NCBI GenBank assembly: GCA_963696385.1
Contig: CAVOKF010000008.1
Coordinates: forward strand, 822,523 to 886,522
Direction of reading: 5' to 3'
Length of the DNA stretch: 64,000 bases
DNA from: an uncultured delta proteobacterium
GTDB lineage: Bacteria > Myxococcota_A > Polyangia > Polyangiales > Polyangiaceae
Part shown: piece after piece, positions 1-14,049 of the stretch
Layout of the letters: each line of letters begins with the position of its first letter
Numbering within the stretch: position 1 is the first letter of the stretch
The notes under the pieces: model-generated
The model's input: the letters and a program-made list of their open reading frames with translations, nothing else
What the model was told of the DNA's origin: nothing
Database searches by the model: none
Translations under genes and position numbers: made by a program

Positions 1-1095
1 GATCGCGCGCCGGAGCTCCACGCGATCCATCACGAGCATGTCTGCGAGTTGGCCCTCGCTGTAGAGCCCCTGCTCGTGGGCCTCTGCGGCGAGCATCAGG
101 AGGCGCGCTCCGGGCTCCGTGCTCTCGCCTTCCTCCTGGCTTCCGAGCACGCGTTGCACGGCCTCCTCATCGAGCCCCCGATCCTTGACGGAGTCGTAGG
201 TTCCCTGCGGCAGCAGCTCCAGCCGCTCCAACTGGCGCGTGAATGCCTCGACCGACACTCCAAGCCGGTGTGCACCCAAGATCAGGTGCCGCGCGGAGAA
301 CCTGCCTTCTTGCCCGACGTATTCATCGAAGATTCTACGCACCGTCGCGCTGGGCATGAGGAAAGCCGCAGCGAACGCGTCAGCGAAGACGTCGTCGGGA
401 TGCTTTCCCACGAGTGTGAAGGCGATGCTTGGCTCTCGACGGGTCGTGAGGAAGTGAGCAAGCTCGTGCGCCAGCGTCCACCGGCGCCGGGCGCGCCTGT
501 GCAAGCGGTTGAGCAGTACGCACGCGCCCAGCTCGTCATGGAACGCGTAGACACCTGCGATGGAAGAGGGCAGGGCGCGAACGAAGACGCGAAGTCCGAG
601 CTCGAGCTCCAGGAGCCCGACGAGATCAGGAATCGGTCCGAGCCCCAAGCCGAGTCGAGAGCGCAGTTCTGCCGCCAGCTCCTCGGCCTGCTTGTCCAGG
701 CGTCCACGCCCAGGCCTCCGCTCGGGCGGGTAGTCGATGGGGGTTACCTTGTGGAGGCGGTGCTCGAGCTCGACGTAGGCCGCCGCGAGGTCGTGAAGGA
801 GCGTCAGGGCCTGCACGCCTTCTCGATCCGCCTTTCCTGCGCGGCCGGTGCTCTTGCGGCGAAACTGCCCGACGAGATCGACGCGAACCGCGGTCGGCCG
901 GAGGAACGAGTGCACGCCGACCCCATAGAGCGCGGCGAGAGCAACAAGTTCCTCGGGTCGTGGCTGTCGGTCCCCCCCTTCGATTGCAACGAGCGTCGTC
1001 CGGGCGACGCCGAGTTTCTCTGCCGCGTGCTCCTGCGTCAGTCCGGCCGCCCCGCGAGCGACTCGAAGTCGTTCCCCTAGCTTTGCTGGATCCAT
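1..1095 (-). CDS. XRE-family HTH fused to ImmA/IrrE-family zinc metallopeptidase (3' end runs off the window)
   Basis: Absent from the ORF track because there is no stop in the window. Manual translation from ATG 1095: MDPAKLGERLRVARGAAGLTQEHAAEKLGVARTTLVAIEGGDRQPRPEELVALAALYGV (XRE HTH) ... RRRWTLAHELAHFL (HExxH) ... ADAFAAAFLMP. Open to position 1. Confidence 0.9.
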   Translation of the reverse strand, partial: MDPAKLGERLRVARGAAGLTQEHAAEKLGVARTTLVAIEGGDRQPRPEELVALAALYGVGVHSFLRPTAVRVDLVGQFRRKSTGRAGKADREGVQALTLLHDLAAAYVELEHRLHKVTPIDYPPERRPGRGRLDKQAEELAAELRSRLGLGLGPIPDLVGLLELELGLRVFVRALPSSIAGVYAFHDELGACVLLNRLHRRARRRWTLAHELAHFLTTRREPSIAFTLVGKHPDDVFADAFAAAFLMPSATVRRIFDEYVGQEGRFSARHLILGAHRLGVSVEAFTRQLERLELLPQGTYDSVKDRGLDEEAVQRVLGSQEEGESTEPGARLLMLAAEAHEQGLYSEGQLADMLVMDRVELRRAI

Positions 1096-2450
1096 GGATC
1101 ACCGGGTCCTTGCTCAGAAGTCACAACCTGACGCAACCAACTTCTTTCGGGCACCGCGTTGACGAAGCCGCTCCACTCCTCCGCATGCTTCGCGAAAAGG
1201 CGGCCGAGCTTCGTCTCGACCTCGGCGGACGGCCGCCCCACGGACCTCGCCGTCTCCAGCACGTGACCGCGGTAGTTCGGCAGCTTCGCGGCTACGCCCG
1301 CGAGCTCGTCGAGATCCACCGCGGCGTACGTTCCGACCTCGCGATCAGCCGGCTGCGCATCCGCCGGGAGGTCCGCGTCGACGAGAACGTCGGCGTAGTA
1401 GGTTCCAGCGTCCTCGACGAGGCCAGCCGCCCGAAGGGACTGGCGGCGGAACATGCAGCCGGAGCAAAGCCCGCAGTGGCTCGCGGACACGTTCGGGTGC
1501 TGCCGGCGGACGTTTCGGCTGCACGAGCGCGTCCGCTGCCATCCTTCGAGGGCCTTGCGGGCGTGCAGCTCTGCAAGCACCTCCCCCTTCGTAACCCACA
1601 AGTGCGGCAGCTCGAACGGCGGCAGCACACCCCATAGGTGCTCGAAACATGCGCCTAGTTTCTTGATGAACATGGGGTGGCAACCGGAGACGGGTTGCTC
1701 GATGCCGAACGGCACGAAGGAAGGCCCAAGGCACCCGATGCCGCTCTCGCCGATCCAGATGCGAGCGGCGTTGTTTCGGCGCCAGGCGAGGGCAGCCAAC
1801 GAAAAGAACACGAGGGTCCGCGTTCGATACGACGGCTCCGCGTGCGAGCCTCCCGAAACCGTGAACGGAACCGCCAGCGCGGGCGCCGAGCGATCGCGAT
1901 CCGGGAGAACCGAGTGCAGCGAGCGCGCGCCGTGCTGTGCATGGACGAGCAAGAGCGGCGCGCCGTCGTTCTGAACGCGGTGCTGGGCGACCGTGGCGAA
2001 CGAGTCCAAGCCGCCGCTGTACGGCGCGACGGTCGCCCCGCGAAACTCGCGCGGCAACTGCGGCAGGAAGAGCTGACGGAGCTCGTCGGCAGCCGTGCGG
2101 GGACGAAATTCGAGGCGCCAGAAATCACCGCTCACGTCGTGCAGCAGCGACACCAGCTCCGGCGAGACGCGTTCCCATTCGGCAGGCAGATACACGGGCA
2201 CAGAGAGCGCGACCGCTCGGCCCCATCGACTGCCCCGTCGCCGCGACACGCGCCGATCCGCGAAGGCGATCGAGGCGAGCACGACGAGCAAGTCGACGTC
2301 GATCTCCTCGAGCGGCGTACTGCTGCACCGCTCGAGTGCTCCGCGATCGAACCGGAGCTCGGGGCCGAGGGCGCAAGAGATCGCATCGTCGGGCGCGGGA
2401 GCGCCGGCCTGCTCGAGGACAACGGTCGAGTGCTCTACCGCGGCGTTCAT
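1077..2450 (-). CDS. QueC-like (7-cyano-7-deazaguanine synthase family) protein, QatC-type architecture
   Basis: PP-loop SGGLDS; N-terminal DLL..LA...AD..V.R....W.R...L.VPV...W...GD.W..F block typical of QatC; SYRTR, TKGEV, SC...HCGLCSGCMFRR zinc site. Confidence 0.85.
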   Translation of the reverse strand: MNAAVEHSTVVLEQAGAPAPDDAISCALGPELRFDRGALERCSSTPLEEIDVDLLVVLASIAFADRRVSRRRGSRWGRAVALSVPVYLPAEWERVSPELVSLLHDVSGDFWRLEFRPRTAADELRQLFLPQLPREFRGATVAPYSGGLDSFATVAQHRVQNDGAPLLLVHAQHGARSLHSVLPDRDRSAPALAVPFTVSGGSHAEPSYRTRTLVFFSLAALAWRRNNAARIWIGESGIGCLGPSFVPFGIEQPVSGCHPMFIKKLGACFEHLWGVLPPFELPHLWVTKGEVLAELHARKALEGWQRTRSCSRNVRRQHPNVSASHCGLCSGCMFRRQSLRAAGLVEDAGTYYADVLVDADLPADAQPADREVGTYAAVDLDELAGVAAKLPNYRGHVLETARSVGRPSAEVETKLGRLFAKHAEEWSGFVNAVPERSWLRQVVTSEQGPGDPWIQQS

Positions 2451-2854
2451 CGGCCCCCCCGTAGGTCAGCGTCTAGGTCGAGCCGAAGCTTCGTCGCGCG
2501 CGGCGGCGCCTCACCGGCAAGGTGACGACGCGCCAGACCCTCCAGATCAGCAGACCGCGCGGCCTCGCCGAAGCGACCCAGGAGCGCGGGGCAGTCGCGT
2601 GGGAAGTCGACGTTCCCCTGTGCACGAACCTCGCGCCCGACGACGCTCACGCGGTCCACGAGAGCTTGGGTCAGCGCTCGCCTGGCCGCTTCCTCGGCGG
2701 ATATCCGCTGGTCTGCGATTGCTGCACCTTGACGAAGGAAGGACGCTTCGATCGCGCTGCGCGGCTCGCACGCCGGTTGAAAGGACTCGCCGGGGAACAG
2801 CGAGCCCTCGCCGGCGGCCAGCGCGCGTCGGAGGTAGTCGACGGTGAATGTCAT
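2447..2854 (-). CDS. Hypothetical protein (~135 aa), first gene of the QueC-like operon
   Basis: ATG 2854 with AGGA upstream; stop overlaps the QueC-like start (ATGA). The TTG at 2899 in the track is the -35 box. Confidence 0.65.
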   Translation of the reverse strand: MTFTVDYLRRALAAGEGSLFPGESFQPACEPRSAIEASFLRQGAAIADQRISAEEAARRALTQALVDRVSVVGREVRAQGNVDFPRDCPALLGRFGEAARSADLEGLARRHLAGEAPPRATKLRLDLDADLRGGR

Positions 2855-2871
2855 CGCGCATCCTGAACACA

Positions 2872-2930
2872 AGCATAGTGTCACCGGGAACAATGTCAAG
2901 TCGTGCTGGATGTATGCCTGACATTGTCAA
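2872..2930 (-). promoter_or_regulatory. Sigma-70-type promoter with TGACA operator-like palindrome
   Basis: Minus strand TTGACA (2899-2894), 16 nt, TATGCT (2877-2872); palindrome TGACA-N-TGTCA at 2919-2929. Confidence 0.6.
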
Positions 2931-5925: not shown

Positions 5926-6729
5926 GCATCGGGAAGACTCCGAAGCAGCTCACTCGACGGCCAGCTCAGTGGGCGAAAGAACGCGATTTCCTATCGTGCA
6001 ACAACGAGCGGATCGCCGACGAGCGCACACCGATCGACGACGATGGCGGGATAGCAAGCCCTCCGTGAAAGAGGGATTGCAGGCCTGCACAACGGGCTTA
6101 GCGATCGGGAGAATCGCGTGCTGCAGTCGAGCGCATCGGTCGCGCTCACCTCGCCGGCACGGCTTTGCTGCAGGCGACTGAGGGAGGTTTACCCGATGAC
6201 TCCGTGGCTCTGGCCTTTCAGATGCGCGCCGTGCCGAAGTCCGCGCTTCCTAACCCGTGTCCGCCCTTTGACCGAGATGGAAATCTCGGAGCTCGAGCTG
6301 GCCACCGATGAGGCTCTGGGCCGCGTAGAACCGGAGTGATCGAACTTTCGTATCGACGACGACGCGGACTTACGTTCCGCGGAGTCTTGCCGTCCTGTTC
6401 AAGTCGGGCTCGGGAGCGCTTGGAGCGACGGCGCGCACCTTCTCGTCCGACGAACGTAGCTCCCCCTATCGGCGCGTGCCCTGCCGTCCTACCGCCCCCC
6501 GGCCGGACCTACGAAGTTTCCGACACGTCGAACCTCGGGCTCAGATCACAGGGATCGGAGTGGCCGCTGACAAAGGTCCATGCAGCAGATGTCGATCCCC
6601 GCGAGCGTTTTCAGGAGCCTGCTAGAACAGGGCCGGCGCGCGAAGTGGCGCGTGGGGCCGGGCGTTGCGTTCTCAGTGGAGACGCCGTCCCATATGGCGC
6701 CATCCAACCGCGAAGGAGAGCGCTACATC

Positions 6730-8064: not shown

Positions 8065-8202
8065 TCGCGCAGCATCGCGATGCCTTGGCTTTGGGCAATG
8101 GGTGGGCAATGCGGTAGAGCCGCGCCTGTAAGTCGCGCAGCATCGCGATGCCTTGGCTTTGGGCAATGGGTGGGCAATGCGGTAGAGCCGCGCCTGTAAG
8201 TC
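8065..8202. repeat. Perfect tandem duplication of 68 bp just downstream of tRNA-Gly
   Basis: 8065-8132 equals 8133-8200; each copy contains the direct repeat GGGCAATG-N3-GGGCAATG. Confidence 0.9.
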
Positions 8203-8232
8203 CCGGTAGACGAACGGCTTTCTGGCCCATAG

Positions 8233-8304
8233 AGCGGGAGAAGGGATTTGAACCCTCGACGTCCACCTTGGCAAGGTGGCACTCTACCACTGAGTTACTC
8301 CCGC
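8233..8304 (-). tRNA. tRNA-Gly (GCC), CCA not encoded
   Basis: GCGGGAGTAACTCAGTGGTAGAGTGCCACCTTGCCAAGGTGGACGTCGAGGGTTCAAATCCCTTCTCCCGCT folds as a cloverleaf. Confidence 0.97.
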
Positions 8305-13390: not shown

Positions 13391-14049
13391 CGCTCGCCCT
13401 CGGCGTGCTTGCCTCGGGAAGCGGCACCAACCTGCAGGCTATCTTGGATGCGATCGTCTCAGGAACGCTGGACGCGAGAGTGGCCGTGGTGGTGTCGAAC
13501 GTTCGAGACGCCCAGGCGCTCGCGCGGGCGCGGGCCGCGGGCATCGACGGCGTCCTCATCGAGCACACGGCCTTTGGCGACCGTAGGGCGTTCGACACGC
13601 AGGTCGTCGAGATCTTGCGCGCTCACGGCGCGGAGGTCGTGGTGCTGGCCGGCTTCATGCGGCTCGTCACGGACGTCCTGCTCGACGCCTACCCGATGCG
13701 CGTCGTCAACGTTCACCCTTCTCTTCTGCCCTCGTTTCCTGGACTGCACGCACAACGACAAGCCCTCGAATACGGCGTCCGGATCGCCGGATGCACGGTG
13801 CATTTTGTCGATTCCGGTACGGACACGGGGCCGATCATCGCCCAAGGCGCCGTCGAGGTATTCGACGACGACGACGAGGAACGTCTGCGCCTTCGCATTT
13901 TGGCCGAGGAGCATGCGCTGCTTCCGCGCGCTCTGCAGTGGATCGCAGCCGGGCGCTTGAGCGTCGTCTCGTCGGGGTCTCCGGGTAGTCGCGCGCGGGC
14001 ACTCGTCGGAAGCGGGCCCATTGAAGCGAAGGGACTGCAACGACGATGA
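13387..14049 (+). CDS. purN: Phosphoribosylglycinamide formyltransferase
   Basis: SGSGTNLQAI, LAGFMR, NVHPSLLP, GCTVHFVD...DTGPII. Confidence 0.97.
   Translation: MTLALGVLASGSGTNLQAILDAIVSGTLDARVAVVVSNVRDAQALARARAAGIDGVLIEHTAFGDRRAFDTQVVEILRAHGAEVVVLAGFMRLVTDVLLDAYPMRVVNVHPSLLPSFPGLHAQRQALEYGVRIAGCTVHFVDSGTDTGPIIAQGAVEVFDDDDEERLRLRILAEEHALLPRALQWIAAGRLSVVSSGSPGSRARALVGSGPIEAKGLQRR

Follow-up and report, generated by a model that had tools for sequence, protein, structure and literature searches.

The QueC-like enzyme QatC of the anti-phage system QatABCD receives the N-terminal loop of its partner QatB in its active site; against some phages, QatBC is protective on its own (PMC13279940; PMC13376578). 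QatC has an invariant T278/T280 pair, required for defence, in place of the Tyr/Asp pair that reads 7-carboxy-7-deazaguanine (CDG) (PMC13279940). In type IV CBASS (an anti-phage signalling system that relies on cyclic oligonucleotides), another QueC-family enzyme, Cap9, modifies the N-terminus of its partner CdnD (10.1101/2025.04.06.647259), and canonical QueC is a protein of about 220 aa with YxQxHxxE, VPxRN and YPDC motifs (PMC13329287). Fusions of Xre and COG2856 domains next to PIN genes are predicted toxin-antitoxin pairs, and UPF0175 is listed as a predicted antitoxin of PIN toxins (PMC2701414). RmrA-type antitoxins have been confirmed in RosmerTA phage defence, and ImmA cuts helix-turn-helix (HTH) repressors (PMC10440598). 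Here we analysed a cassette of four genes, encoding a small partner protein (X), a QueC-like enzyme, an XRE-IrrE protein and a PIN nuclease, at the left end of a 64,000-nt stretch of DNA ("the window") from an uncultured delta proteobacterium of the Polyangiaceae. The cassette is probably an undescribed phage-defence system.

The window comprises C8:822523-886522 of the host genome (G000; assembly GCA_963696385.1, contig CAVOKF010000008.1), and C8 coordinates are those of that contig. A survey of the QueC family reports qatA and qatD beside only about a third of the genes in the QatC cluster (PMC13329287), so unnamed variants are to be expected. The available part of this survey holds no neighbourhood like the cassette, and the supplement examined has no PF06114 entry (PMC13329287). 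The full-text literature searched contained no description of the cassette; large supplementary tables of predicted defence operons could hold one.

Gene content of the cassette and its place among known systems

Three frames on the minus strand open the window, at 2854..2447 (135 aa from an ATG that begins MTF), 2450..1077 (457 aa) and 1095..<1, with overlaps of 4 nt and then 19 nt between successive frames. The preliminary description had read them as a three-gene module, and the frames themselves are as it gave them. The host genome completes the third gene (1..1095, minus strand), whose 383-aa product runs past the window edge to C8:822466, and adds a fourth just left of the window: a gene for a 190-aa PIN (VapC-fold) nuclease at C8:822469..821897, which overlaps the peptidase stop by 4 nt. 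The module is one of four genes in the order X, QueC-like enzyme, XRE/IrrE, PIN, and the earlier suggestion that an effector might lie beyond the left edge is supported, with PIN as the likely effector. All four genes had dN/dS values of about 0.07-0.23 against their closest relatives, showing that purifying selection acts on them.

Profile matches and motifs identify the 457-aa protein (1077..2450, minus strand) as a QueC-like PP-loop ATP pyrophosphatase with QatC architecture, as had been proposed. It matched the PADLOC QatC model at E 1e-38, but remained below the cut-offs of NCBIfam QatC (NF041925; 140 against 280 bits) and Pfam QueC (17.9 against 22 bits). The protein carries SGGLDS, four zinc cysteines (C310/C326/C329/C332) and E251-x-P253 where QatC has its Thr/Thr pocket; its sequence, about twice the length of canonical QueC, contains none of the three canonical motifs. 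In enzymes partnered with X elsewhere, the four cysteines are retained, as is the P-loop, which reads SGGLDS or, in many cases, SDGLDS or SNGLDS. At the columns of T278 and T280, Thr occurs in 0 and 4 of 55 enzymes of the clade, respectively, and a conserved E-x-P just upstream is present in 52/55 and 51/55; the CDG-reading Tyr/Asp pair is not conserved at the corresponding columns. In two trees, both quick searches with support from the Shimodaira-Hasegawa-like approximate likelihood ratio test (SH-aLRT) only, the X-partnered enzymes formed one clade (99-100) that was distinct both from the four QatC proteins included (97) and from a sister group whose partners start with MGH (95-99).

Like QatC, the enzyme has the extended architecture, the N-terminal D-R..R..WxR motif and SGGxDS, together with the RxR, ExG, HP, TK and CGxCxxCxxRR motifs (list in PMC13329287), and a small all-helical partner is encoded directly upstream, whose predicted docking uses the surfaces that QatB uses and brings its N-terminus to the active site. 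By contrast, the cassette has no QatA (KAP NTPase) or QatD (TatD nuclease), and its enzyme is flanked by X and by XRE-IrrE and coupled to PIN. The absence of a QatA ATPase, noted earlier for the window, extends to the host genome, which is 96% complete and gave no KAP NTPase match. X is about 185 aa long, without a long disordered tail and without a detected sequence or fold match to QatB. The partners start MRD, MSD or MPD, whereas three QatB controls start MGTS and thus have Gly2, and the enzyme lacks the Thr/Thr pocket and belongs to a separate clade (SH-aLRT 99 vs 97). With type IV CBASS the cassette would share a QueC-family enzyme that modifies its partner's N-terminus; however, it has no CD-NTase, Cap10/TGT or OGG, its enzyme is the size of QatC, its partner has no Gly2, and the nucleobase-reading Tyr/Asp pair of Cap9 is not conserved. 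Indeed, models for CD-NTase, Cap9 and Cap10 matched neither the four genes nor the scanned neighbours.

The third gene product fuses an XRE-HTH domain to an ImmA-IrrE peptidase (Peptidase_M78) with a HELAH motif, as the preliminary description had recognised, and ends in a UPF0175-like domain. It matched 14 RmrA models (best E 1.6e-30, over residues 8-362), as well as models for capP and capH. HExxH was invariant in 31 of 31 relatives and the HTH recognition helix nearly so; 22 of the 31 matched UPF0175 at E<=0.1, the window copy at residues 332-362. The AF2 model of the PIN protein reached a predicted local distance difference test (pLDDT) score of 95, its top Foldseek match was Shigella VapC (E 7e-4, prob 1.0), and its acidic residues D7, E40, D91/E93 and D110 are conserved. 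An HTH-M78 fusion matching RmrA models is shared with RosmerTA, and a fusion that precedes a PIN gene is the association listed for Xre-COG2856 (PMC2701414, PMC10440598). The toxin differs from that of RosmerTA, being PIN and not RmrT, for which the PADLOC models gave no match to the fourth gene product, and two extra genes lie between promoter and antitoxin. The repressor/peptidase switches CapH-CapP and ImmR-ImmA likewise place an HTH repressor and an M78 peptidase beside defence genes. The cassette differs in fusing both in one chain with a C-terminal antitoxin-like domain. It would work like QatBC joined to a RosmerTA-type antitoxin, yet it falls outside QatABCD, outside type IV CBASS and, with PIN in place of RmrT, outside RosmerTA, so the earlier view of a different architecture stands for the first two.

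With regard to a host supply of CDG, canonical queC scored over its cut-off in 17 of 25 genomes that host the cassette; the other eight, including G000, had none, most of these being incomplete assemblies. A PTPS/QueD-family gene was found in 23 of the 25. G000 itself, at 96% completeness, has no canonical queC over the cut-off, yet it has a PTPS/QueD-family gene. Two contigs from RNA libraries overlap the enzyme gene in part, but they may stem from carried-over DNA and do not count here as evidence of expression.

The partner protein X and its predicted complex with the enzyme

In relatives of the cassette, the gene before the enzyme encodes a protein of about 180-195 aa that starts MRD(D/G)I(H/Y)K (for example, MRDDIH or MRDGIY). 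The true start of X in the window is the ATG at 2861 (MRDDIHRRLP), in a frame other than that of the MTF open reading frame (ORF). Alignment to a close relative (L044), whose partner is 79% identical to the window X over the shared part, revealed that 131 nt are absent between 2831 and 2830. What is left of gene X (2447..2861, minus strand; QatB-like by role, of no known family) reads ten codons and then a frameshift, and the remainder persists in the frame that had been taken for the 135-aa ORF. We therefore reject MTF as a genuine N-terminus: it is an artefact of the deletion, and the argument that had been built on MTF rather than MG falls with it, the break in the partner gene having gone unnoticed in the preliminary description. 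An assembly error is an unlikely source of the deletion, as the junction recurs in a second locus (L042) and is crossed without differences by a contig of independent origin, from another study; a sequencing run from yet another study has a loose end at 2821 and continues like the undeleted gene. The window copy of X is very likely inactive.

Elsewhere X is a large family, with 1032 clusters at 50% identity in a profile search. The invariance of Asp3 in our X alignment is circular, because its rows were chosen by the motif, and we therefore cite an independent search and profile-found loci instead. Among the best 150 relatives from the independent search, 120 start M-x-D, 106 of them MRD and 8 MSD; the other 30 have mostly longer, shorter or GTG-called starts. 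Position 4 of the 120 is Asp in 60 and Gly in 57, and no Gly is invariant among their first 16 residues. The N-terminus is the most conserved part of X. Met is typically removed before small residues (PMC13279940); as residue 2 of X is usually Arg, Met1 would be kept, and the acceptor would then not be the Gly2 amine. With a Met-Arg-Asp start and Met1 in place, the Gly2 rule that holds for Qat and for type IV CBASS (10.1101/2025.04.06.647259) could not apply.

X is predicted to be all-helical (pLDDT 90). It had no convincing match in PADLOC, NCBIfam, PDB sequences, Foldseek, VIA-align or Atlas, nor in Pfam, which was searched with the window remnant only, and no QatB was among the matches shown in the library and structure searches. 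Foldseek and VIA-align returned unrelated helical proteins only (best Z 6.4, root-mean-square deviation 3.9, 98 residues aligned); such searches are weak for helical proteins, and the absence of matches does not show a new fold. Kinship of X with the MGH-type partners or with QatB was also considered and rejected, at hhalign probabilities of 1.2% and 0.1%, respectively, the QatB side being a single sequence. At its C-terminus (window 2450-2480), X has a conserved acidic tail (consensus DLDEDL), a low-confidence extended segment that is not named in the predicted interface described below.

The preliminary description had called for co-folding of the small protein with the QueC-like one, and the prediction gave binding. 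We folded the cognate pair from locus L041 in three runs, together with three controls. The interaction prediction score from aligned errors (ipSAE) had a median of 0.87 (runs 0.87, 0.86 and 0.87), against 0.01 for the best control; of the calibration pairs, 116 of 157 solved ones and 2 of 215 mismatched ones reached the ipSAE mark used. The runs shared at least 70% of their contacts, and the partner pLDDT was 81-82. In the predicted interface, X residues 1-12 meet enzyme residues 209-215, 249-257, 314-315 and 332-334, which takes in the RxR motif, the 249-257 loop and the zinc region, and helix 117-128 of X lies against both the 249-257 loop and the C-terminal extension of the enzyme. The P-loop serines were not among the named contacts, where an unnamed residue is to be read as uncertain and not as excluded. 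Thus, X is predicted to bind the enzyme 1:1 with its N-terminus in the active-site cleft, in the geometry of QatB-QatC.

Operator, spread and loss of the cassette

A palindrome stands twice before gene X. The distal copy (2920..2930, core GACAATGTC at 2928..2920) is likely bound by the XRE domain, and the proximal copy (2889..2899, minus strand, one mismatch) lies 31 bp from it, over a perfect -35 hexamer, TTGACA (2899..2894). A likely -10 hexamer, TATGCT (2872..2877, minus strand), follows 16 nt past the -35; this putative promoter, read from its sequence, would give the transcript only a very short leader ahead of the ATG at 2861. Among 28 non-redundant loci, the 120 nt upstream of X held an exact GACAnTGTC in 22 (shuffles, 0.06) and, when one mismatch was allowed, a copy in 27 (shuffles, 1.44). 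Two copies were present in 19 of the 28, in every case at a distance of 31-33 bp (shuffles, 0.05), and the proximal copy overlaps the TTGACA box. Under the pattern used, G000 has no other twin site, and none of 13 MGH-type loci had the operator.

An enzyme profile search yielded 32 genome (GTDB) loci and 80 metagenome loci, many of which are kin. Among the best 24 genome loci (L009-L032), all 22 with enough flank read X, enzyme, XRE-IrrE, PIN; these loci are spread over Myxococcota, Acidobacteriota, Verrucomicrobiota, Planctomycetota, Pseudomonadota, Binatota and one assembly labelled Actinomycetota. The other eight genome loci were more distant, seven without IrrE-PIN (sister clades) and one with it (L038). 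We kept 51 of the 80 metagenome loci on a strong enzyme match or an X match without an MGH-type partner, the X criterion being partly circular, and all 24 with both flanks carried the four genes in this order. The co-occurrence on which the preliminary description made its reading depend is wide, with the difference that it joins four genes instead of three. Plasmid records gave 42 matches; the top four opened (Roseomonas, Methylocystis, Agrobacterium and Labrenzia) all had the four genes, annotated in order as hypothetical, 7-cyano-7-deazaguanine synthase or hypothetical, XRE or ImmA-IrrE, and hypothetical, and four weaker hits were ordinary qatABCD loci. Intact copies include those of Methylocystis sp. 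MJC1 (NZ_CP107561) and Labrenzia sp. THAF35 (NZ_CP045382). The spread is patchy: within the host's phylum, X turned up in 2 of 401 genomes. Searching 401 genomes with the X profile, which scored at most eight candidates per genome, misses divergent partners (those in L155 and L156). Viral contigs, searched with a single protein and with an alignment, contained no phage-borne copies.

To look from the other side, we ran a PIN profile through 401 genomes of another phylum and obtained 15 loci, 13 of them new. Three of the 13 had all four genes and one was split by an insertion; four retained only an enzyme tail, two had an X-like head fused to XRE-IrrE, and three had no trace of X or enzyme. All nine reduced loci had the palindrome, exact or with one mismatch, directly before what remains, which ties the operator to XRE-IrrE and points to autorepression of the operon through the palindrome. 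The preliminary description had offered two roles for the peptidase; control of expression gains from an operator that travels with the HTH-peptidase, and exposure of an acceptor glycine loses from the even split between Asp and Gly at position 4. The reduced loci further show that IrrE-PIN can stand alone and that X-enzyme is the part deleted. In L146, the first codons of the partner (MSDG) run in frame into the last ~65 residues of the enzyme; in L147 and L148, a partner-like head is fused in frame to XRE-IrrE; L149-L151 keep the enzyme tail only, and in G658 an insertion splits the enzyme gene into halves 1 Mb apart. From these remnants it is evident that several two-gene loci arose from the four-gene form, with the proviso that several of the scarred genomes (L146-L151, G658) look like kin. 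In an integrity census, 3 of 22 genome loci gave multi-frame matches, possibly through errors of assembly, and the stops seen at the ends of PIN are probably alignment overruns; we claim no decay rate.

In a neighbour scan covering 97 of 118 candidate ORFs of at least 230 aa at 17 genome loci, restriction-modification, Hma, AbiE or Shedu-type genes lay within 8 kb in nine loci and capP in a tenth, as raw counts. None of the 97 proteins matched QatA or QatD. The plasmid copies adjoin Shedu, Lit, AbiEii or Fic genes.

The sister clade (L007, L033-L035, L092-L105, L113, L115, L118, L120) has QatC-like enzymes of mostly 570-700 aa with a TRTTHP-type pocket and a different, unnamed partner of ~260 aa that starts MGHxRLGxLP; it lacks IrrE-PIN and the operator, and its neighbours include RES, EVE and serine-recombinase genes. 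This Gly2-bearing, Qat-like module may be undescribed as well. QatC-like domains also occur in Myxococcota proteins of 850-1150 aa (L036:1835-4999, L040:2915-6346, L008, L037, L116), two of which, when scanned, ended in a metallophosphoesterase domain. Deeper-branching versions (L005, L006, L038, L090, L155, L156) have IrrE and, where checked, the same operator; their partners escape the X profile, and most start acidic (DGDIF, MPDGDRF, MPDGDIF).

Proposed mechanism, chromosomal setting and significance

We favour, with slightly better than even confidence, a reading of the cassette as an inducible Qat-like defence core within an IrrE-PIN toxin-antitoxin operon, acting on an acceptor other than glycine. 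The XRE domain of XRE-IrrE would sit on the twin operators and repress the operon, and the same protein would restrain the PIN RNase through its C-terminal UPF0175-like domain. A signal of stress, damage or infection would activate the HExxH peptidase, which would lift repression and induce the operon. The enzyme would bind X and modify its N-terminal end in an ATP-dependent step, and freed PIN toxin would cause growth arrest alongside X-enzyme defence, both restricting phage. Since the CDG-reading residues and the Thr/Thr pair of QatC are both absent, the group attached to X may be other than CDG. The window copy, with X broken, would be a likely early stage of X-enzyme loss and probably works only as IrrE-PIN.

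Several points weigh against this reading. Seven of the 17 scanned loci and the islet of the window itself have no counted defence neighbour, and the neighbour counts lack a background control. UPF0175 is matched weakly, with a best E of 7e-6 and E 0.11 for the window copy, and Pfam PIN matched only 4 of 32 PIN proteins. The link seen from the PIN side is loose, with only 3 of 13 new loci having all four genes intact, and the two halves need not interact. The predicted complex may pass partly through its likeness to solved QatBC, and its output consists of contacts and not distances. For QatB, a deazaguanine-modified peptide has been reported, yet no intact-mass shift (PMC13639016), and the QatC reaction has not been rebuilt in vitro, the attached group and the mode of stopping phage being called open (PMC13279940). 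Gene content and order, motifs, operator and loss pattern can be read directly in the sequences, the binding between X and enzyme is a prediction, and repression, toxicity, modification and defence are inferred.

One alternative makes all four proteins a single relay, in which X, by being modified or by losing its modification during infection, would trigger the peptidase or strip the antitoxin, leaving PIN as the sole effector. IrrE and PIN do follow every clade enzyme with enough flank (23 of 23 genome loci), the neighbour scan found no QatA/QatD-type effector, and the flexible acidic tail of X, outside the named interface, is possibly free for another protein. However, 9 of the 13 new PIN-side loci retain IrrE-PIN but not X and enzyme, which counts against an obligatory relay, and QatBC alone can defend (PMC13279940). 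We consider this relay unlikely.

We give still less weight to a selfish or general stress operon without a phage role, whose enzyme would act on a small molecule or nucleic acid, with X as a regulatory subunit or substrate mimic. Toxin-antitoxin pairs often serve plasmid or island maintenance, the enzyme pocket is unlike those of both QueC and QatC, and the loci without a defence neighbour and the QatC reaction, not rebuilt in vitro (PMC13279940), fit such an operon as well. By contrast, the closest characterised relatives of both halves, QatC and RmrA, are anti-phage, and a patchy spread over phyla and plasmids with repeated loss is typical of defence genes. That the peptidase cuts X to expose a glycine for deazaguanylation, as Cap9 does for CD-NTase, is improbable: Gly directly follows Asp3 in 57 of the 120 partners and most host genomes (23/25) have a PTPS/QueD-family gene, but Asp takes that position in 60, ImmA-type peptidases are described as cutting HTH repressors (PMC10440598), the CDG-reading pair is not conserved, and 8 of 25 cassette genomes, including G000 and most of them incomplete assemblies, have no canonical queC over the cut-off.

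Beyond the favoured reading of a Qat-like core in a toxin-antitoxin operon, we put forward tentatively that the cassette represents a third, widespread QueC-derived branch of protein ligases, with a partner that keeps an N-terminal Met-Arg-Asp in place of Gly and a modification other than deazaguanine, in which the modified partner would gate the repressor-peptidase/PIN switch. The conserved Asp3 carboxylate would possibly be adenylated and joined to an amine, either the partner's own N-terminus or an amine of another protein. On that reading, the cassette would be the first case of a QueC-family system coupled to a toxin-antitoxin switch, and it would offer a simpler model of what QatC-type enzymes catalyse.

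The cassette forms the far end of a 9-kb islet bounded by tRNA-Gly(GCC) (8232..8304, minus strand) and a copy of the tRNA 3' end beyond the PIN gene (C8:821598-821636), and it lies, as had been suggested, in accessory DNA beyond a tRNA 3' end. None of the 32 tyrosine-recombinase matches in G000 was near the islet; serine recombinases were not searched for. A 73-bp near-tandem duplication adjoins the tRNA-Gly 3' end (window 8065-8205), a second degenerate tRNA 3' fragment lies further left (L001 ~13447-13470), and a 45-bp copy is on another contig (G000 C2:105562-105606); these duplications and fragments are signs of repeated integration at tRNA-Gly. Pieces of ~204 bp, 82% identical, flank the cassette (window 6136-6339 and C8:820670-820871), the left one within an interrupted PemK/MazF toxin gene downstream of an AF2212-like antitoxin gene. 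A 347-bp repeated fragment at C8:819588-819933, transposase-like by eye, has five more genome copies at 95-97% identity. On another contig (C5:931663-931758), ARAGORN called a tRNA of 96 nt whose anticodon, tta, is labelled "Stop"; it may be a pseudogene or a selenocysteine tRNA that was misread.

The cassette offers a natural comparison for the QatC question, with the same architecture and predicted docking, a different pocket and a non-glycine N-terminus, and it brings a candidate effector (PIN) and a switch (XRE-IrrE with a defined operator) built in. The four-gene copies on plasmids of cultured environmental bacteria make defence, modification and regulation directly testable. The cassette also suggests that XRE-IrrE/PIN pairs found alone are in some cases what is left of larger defence operons.

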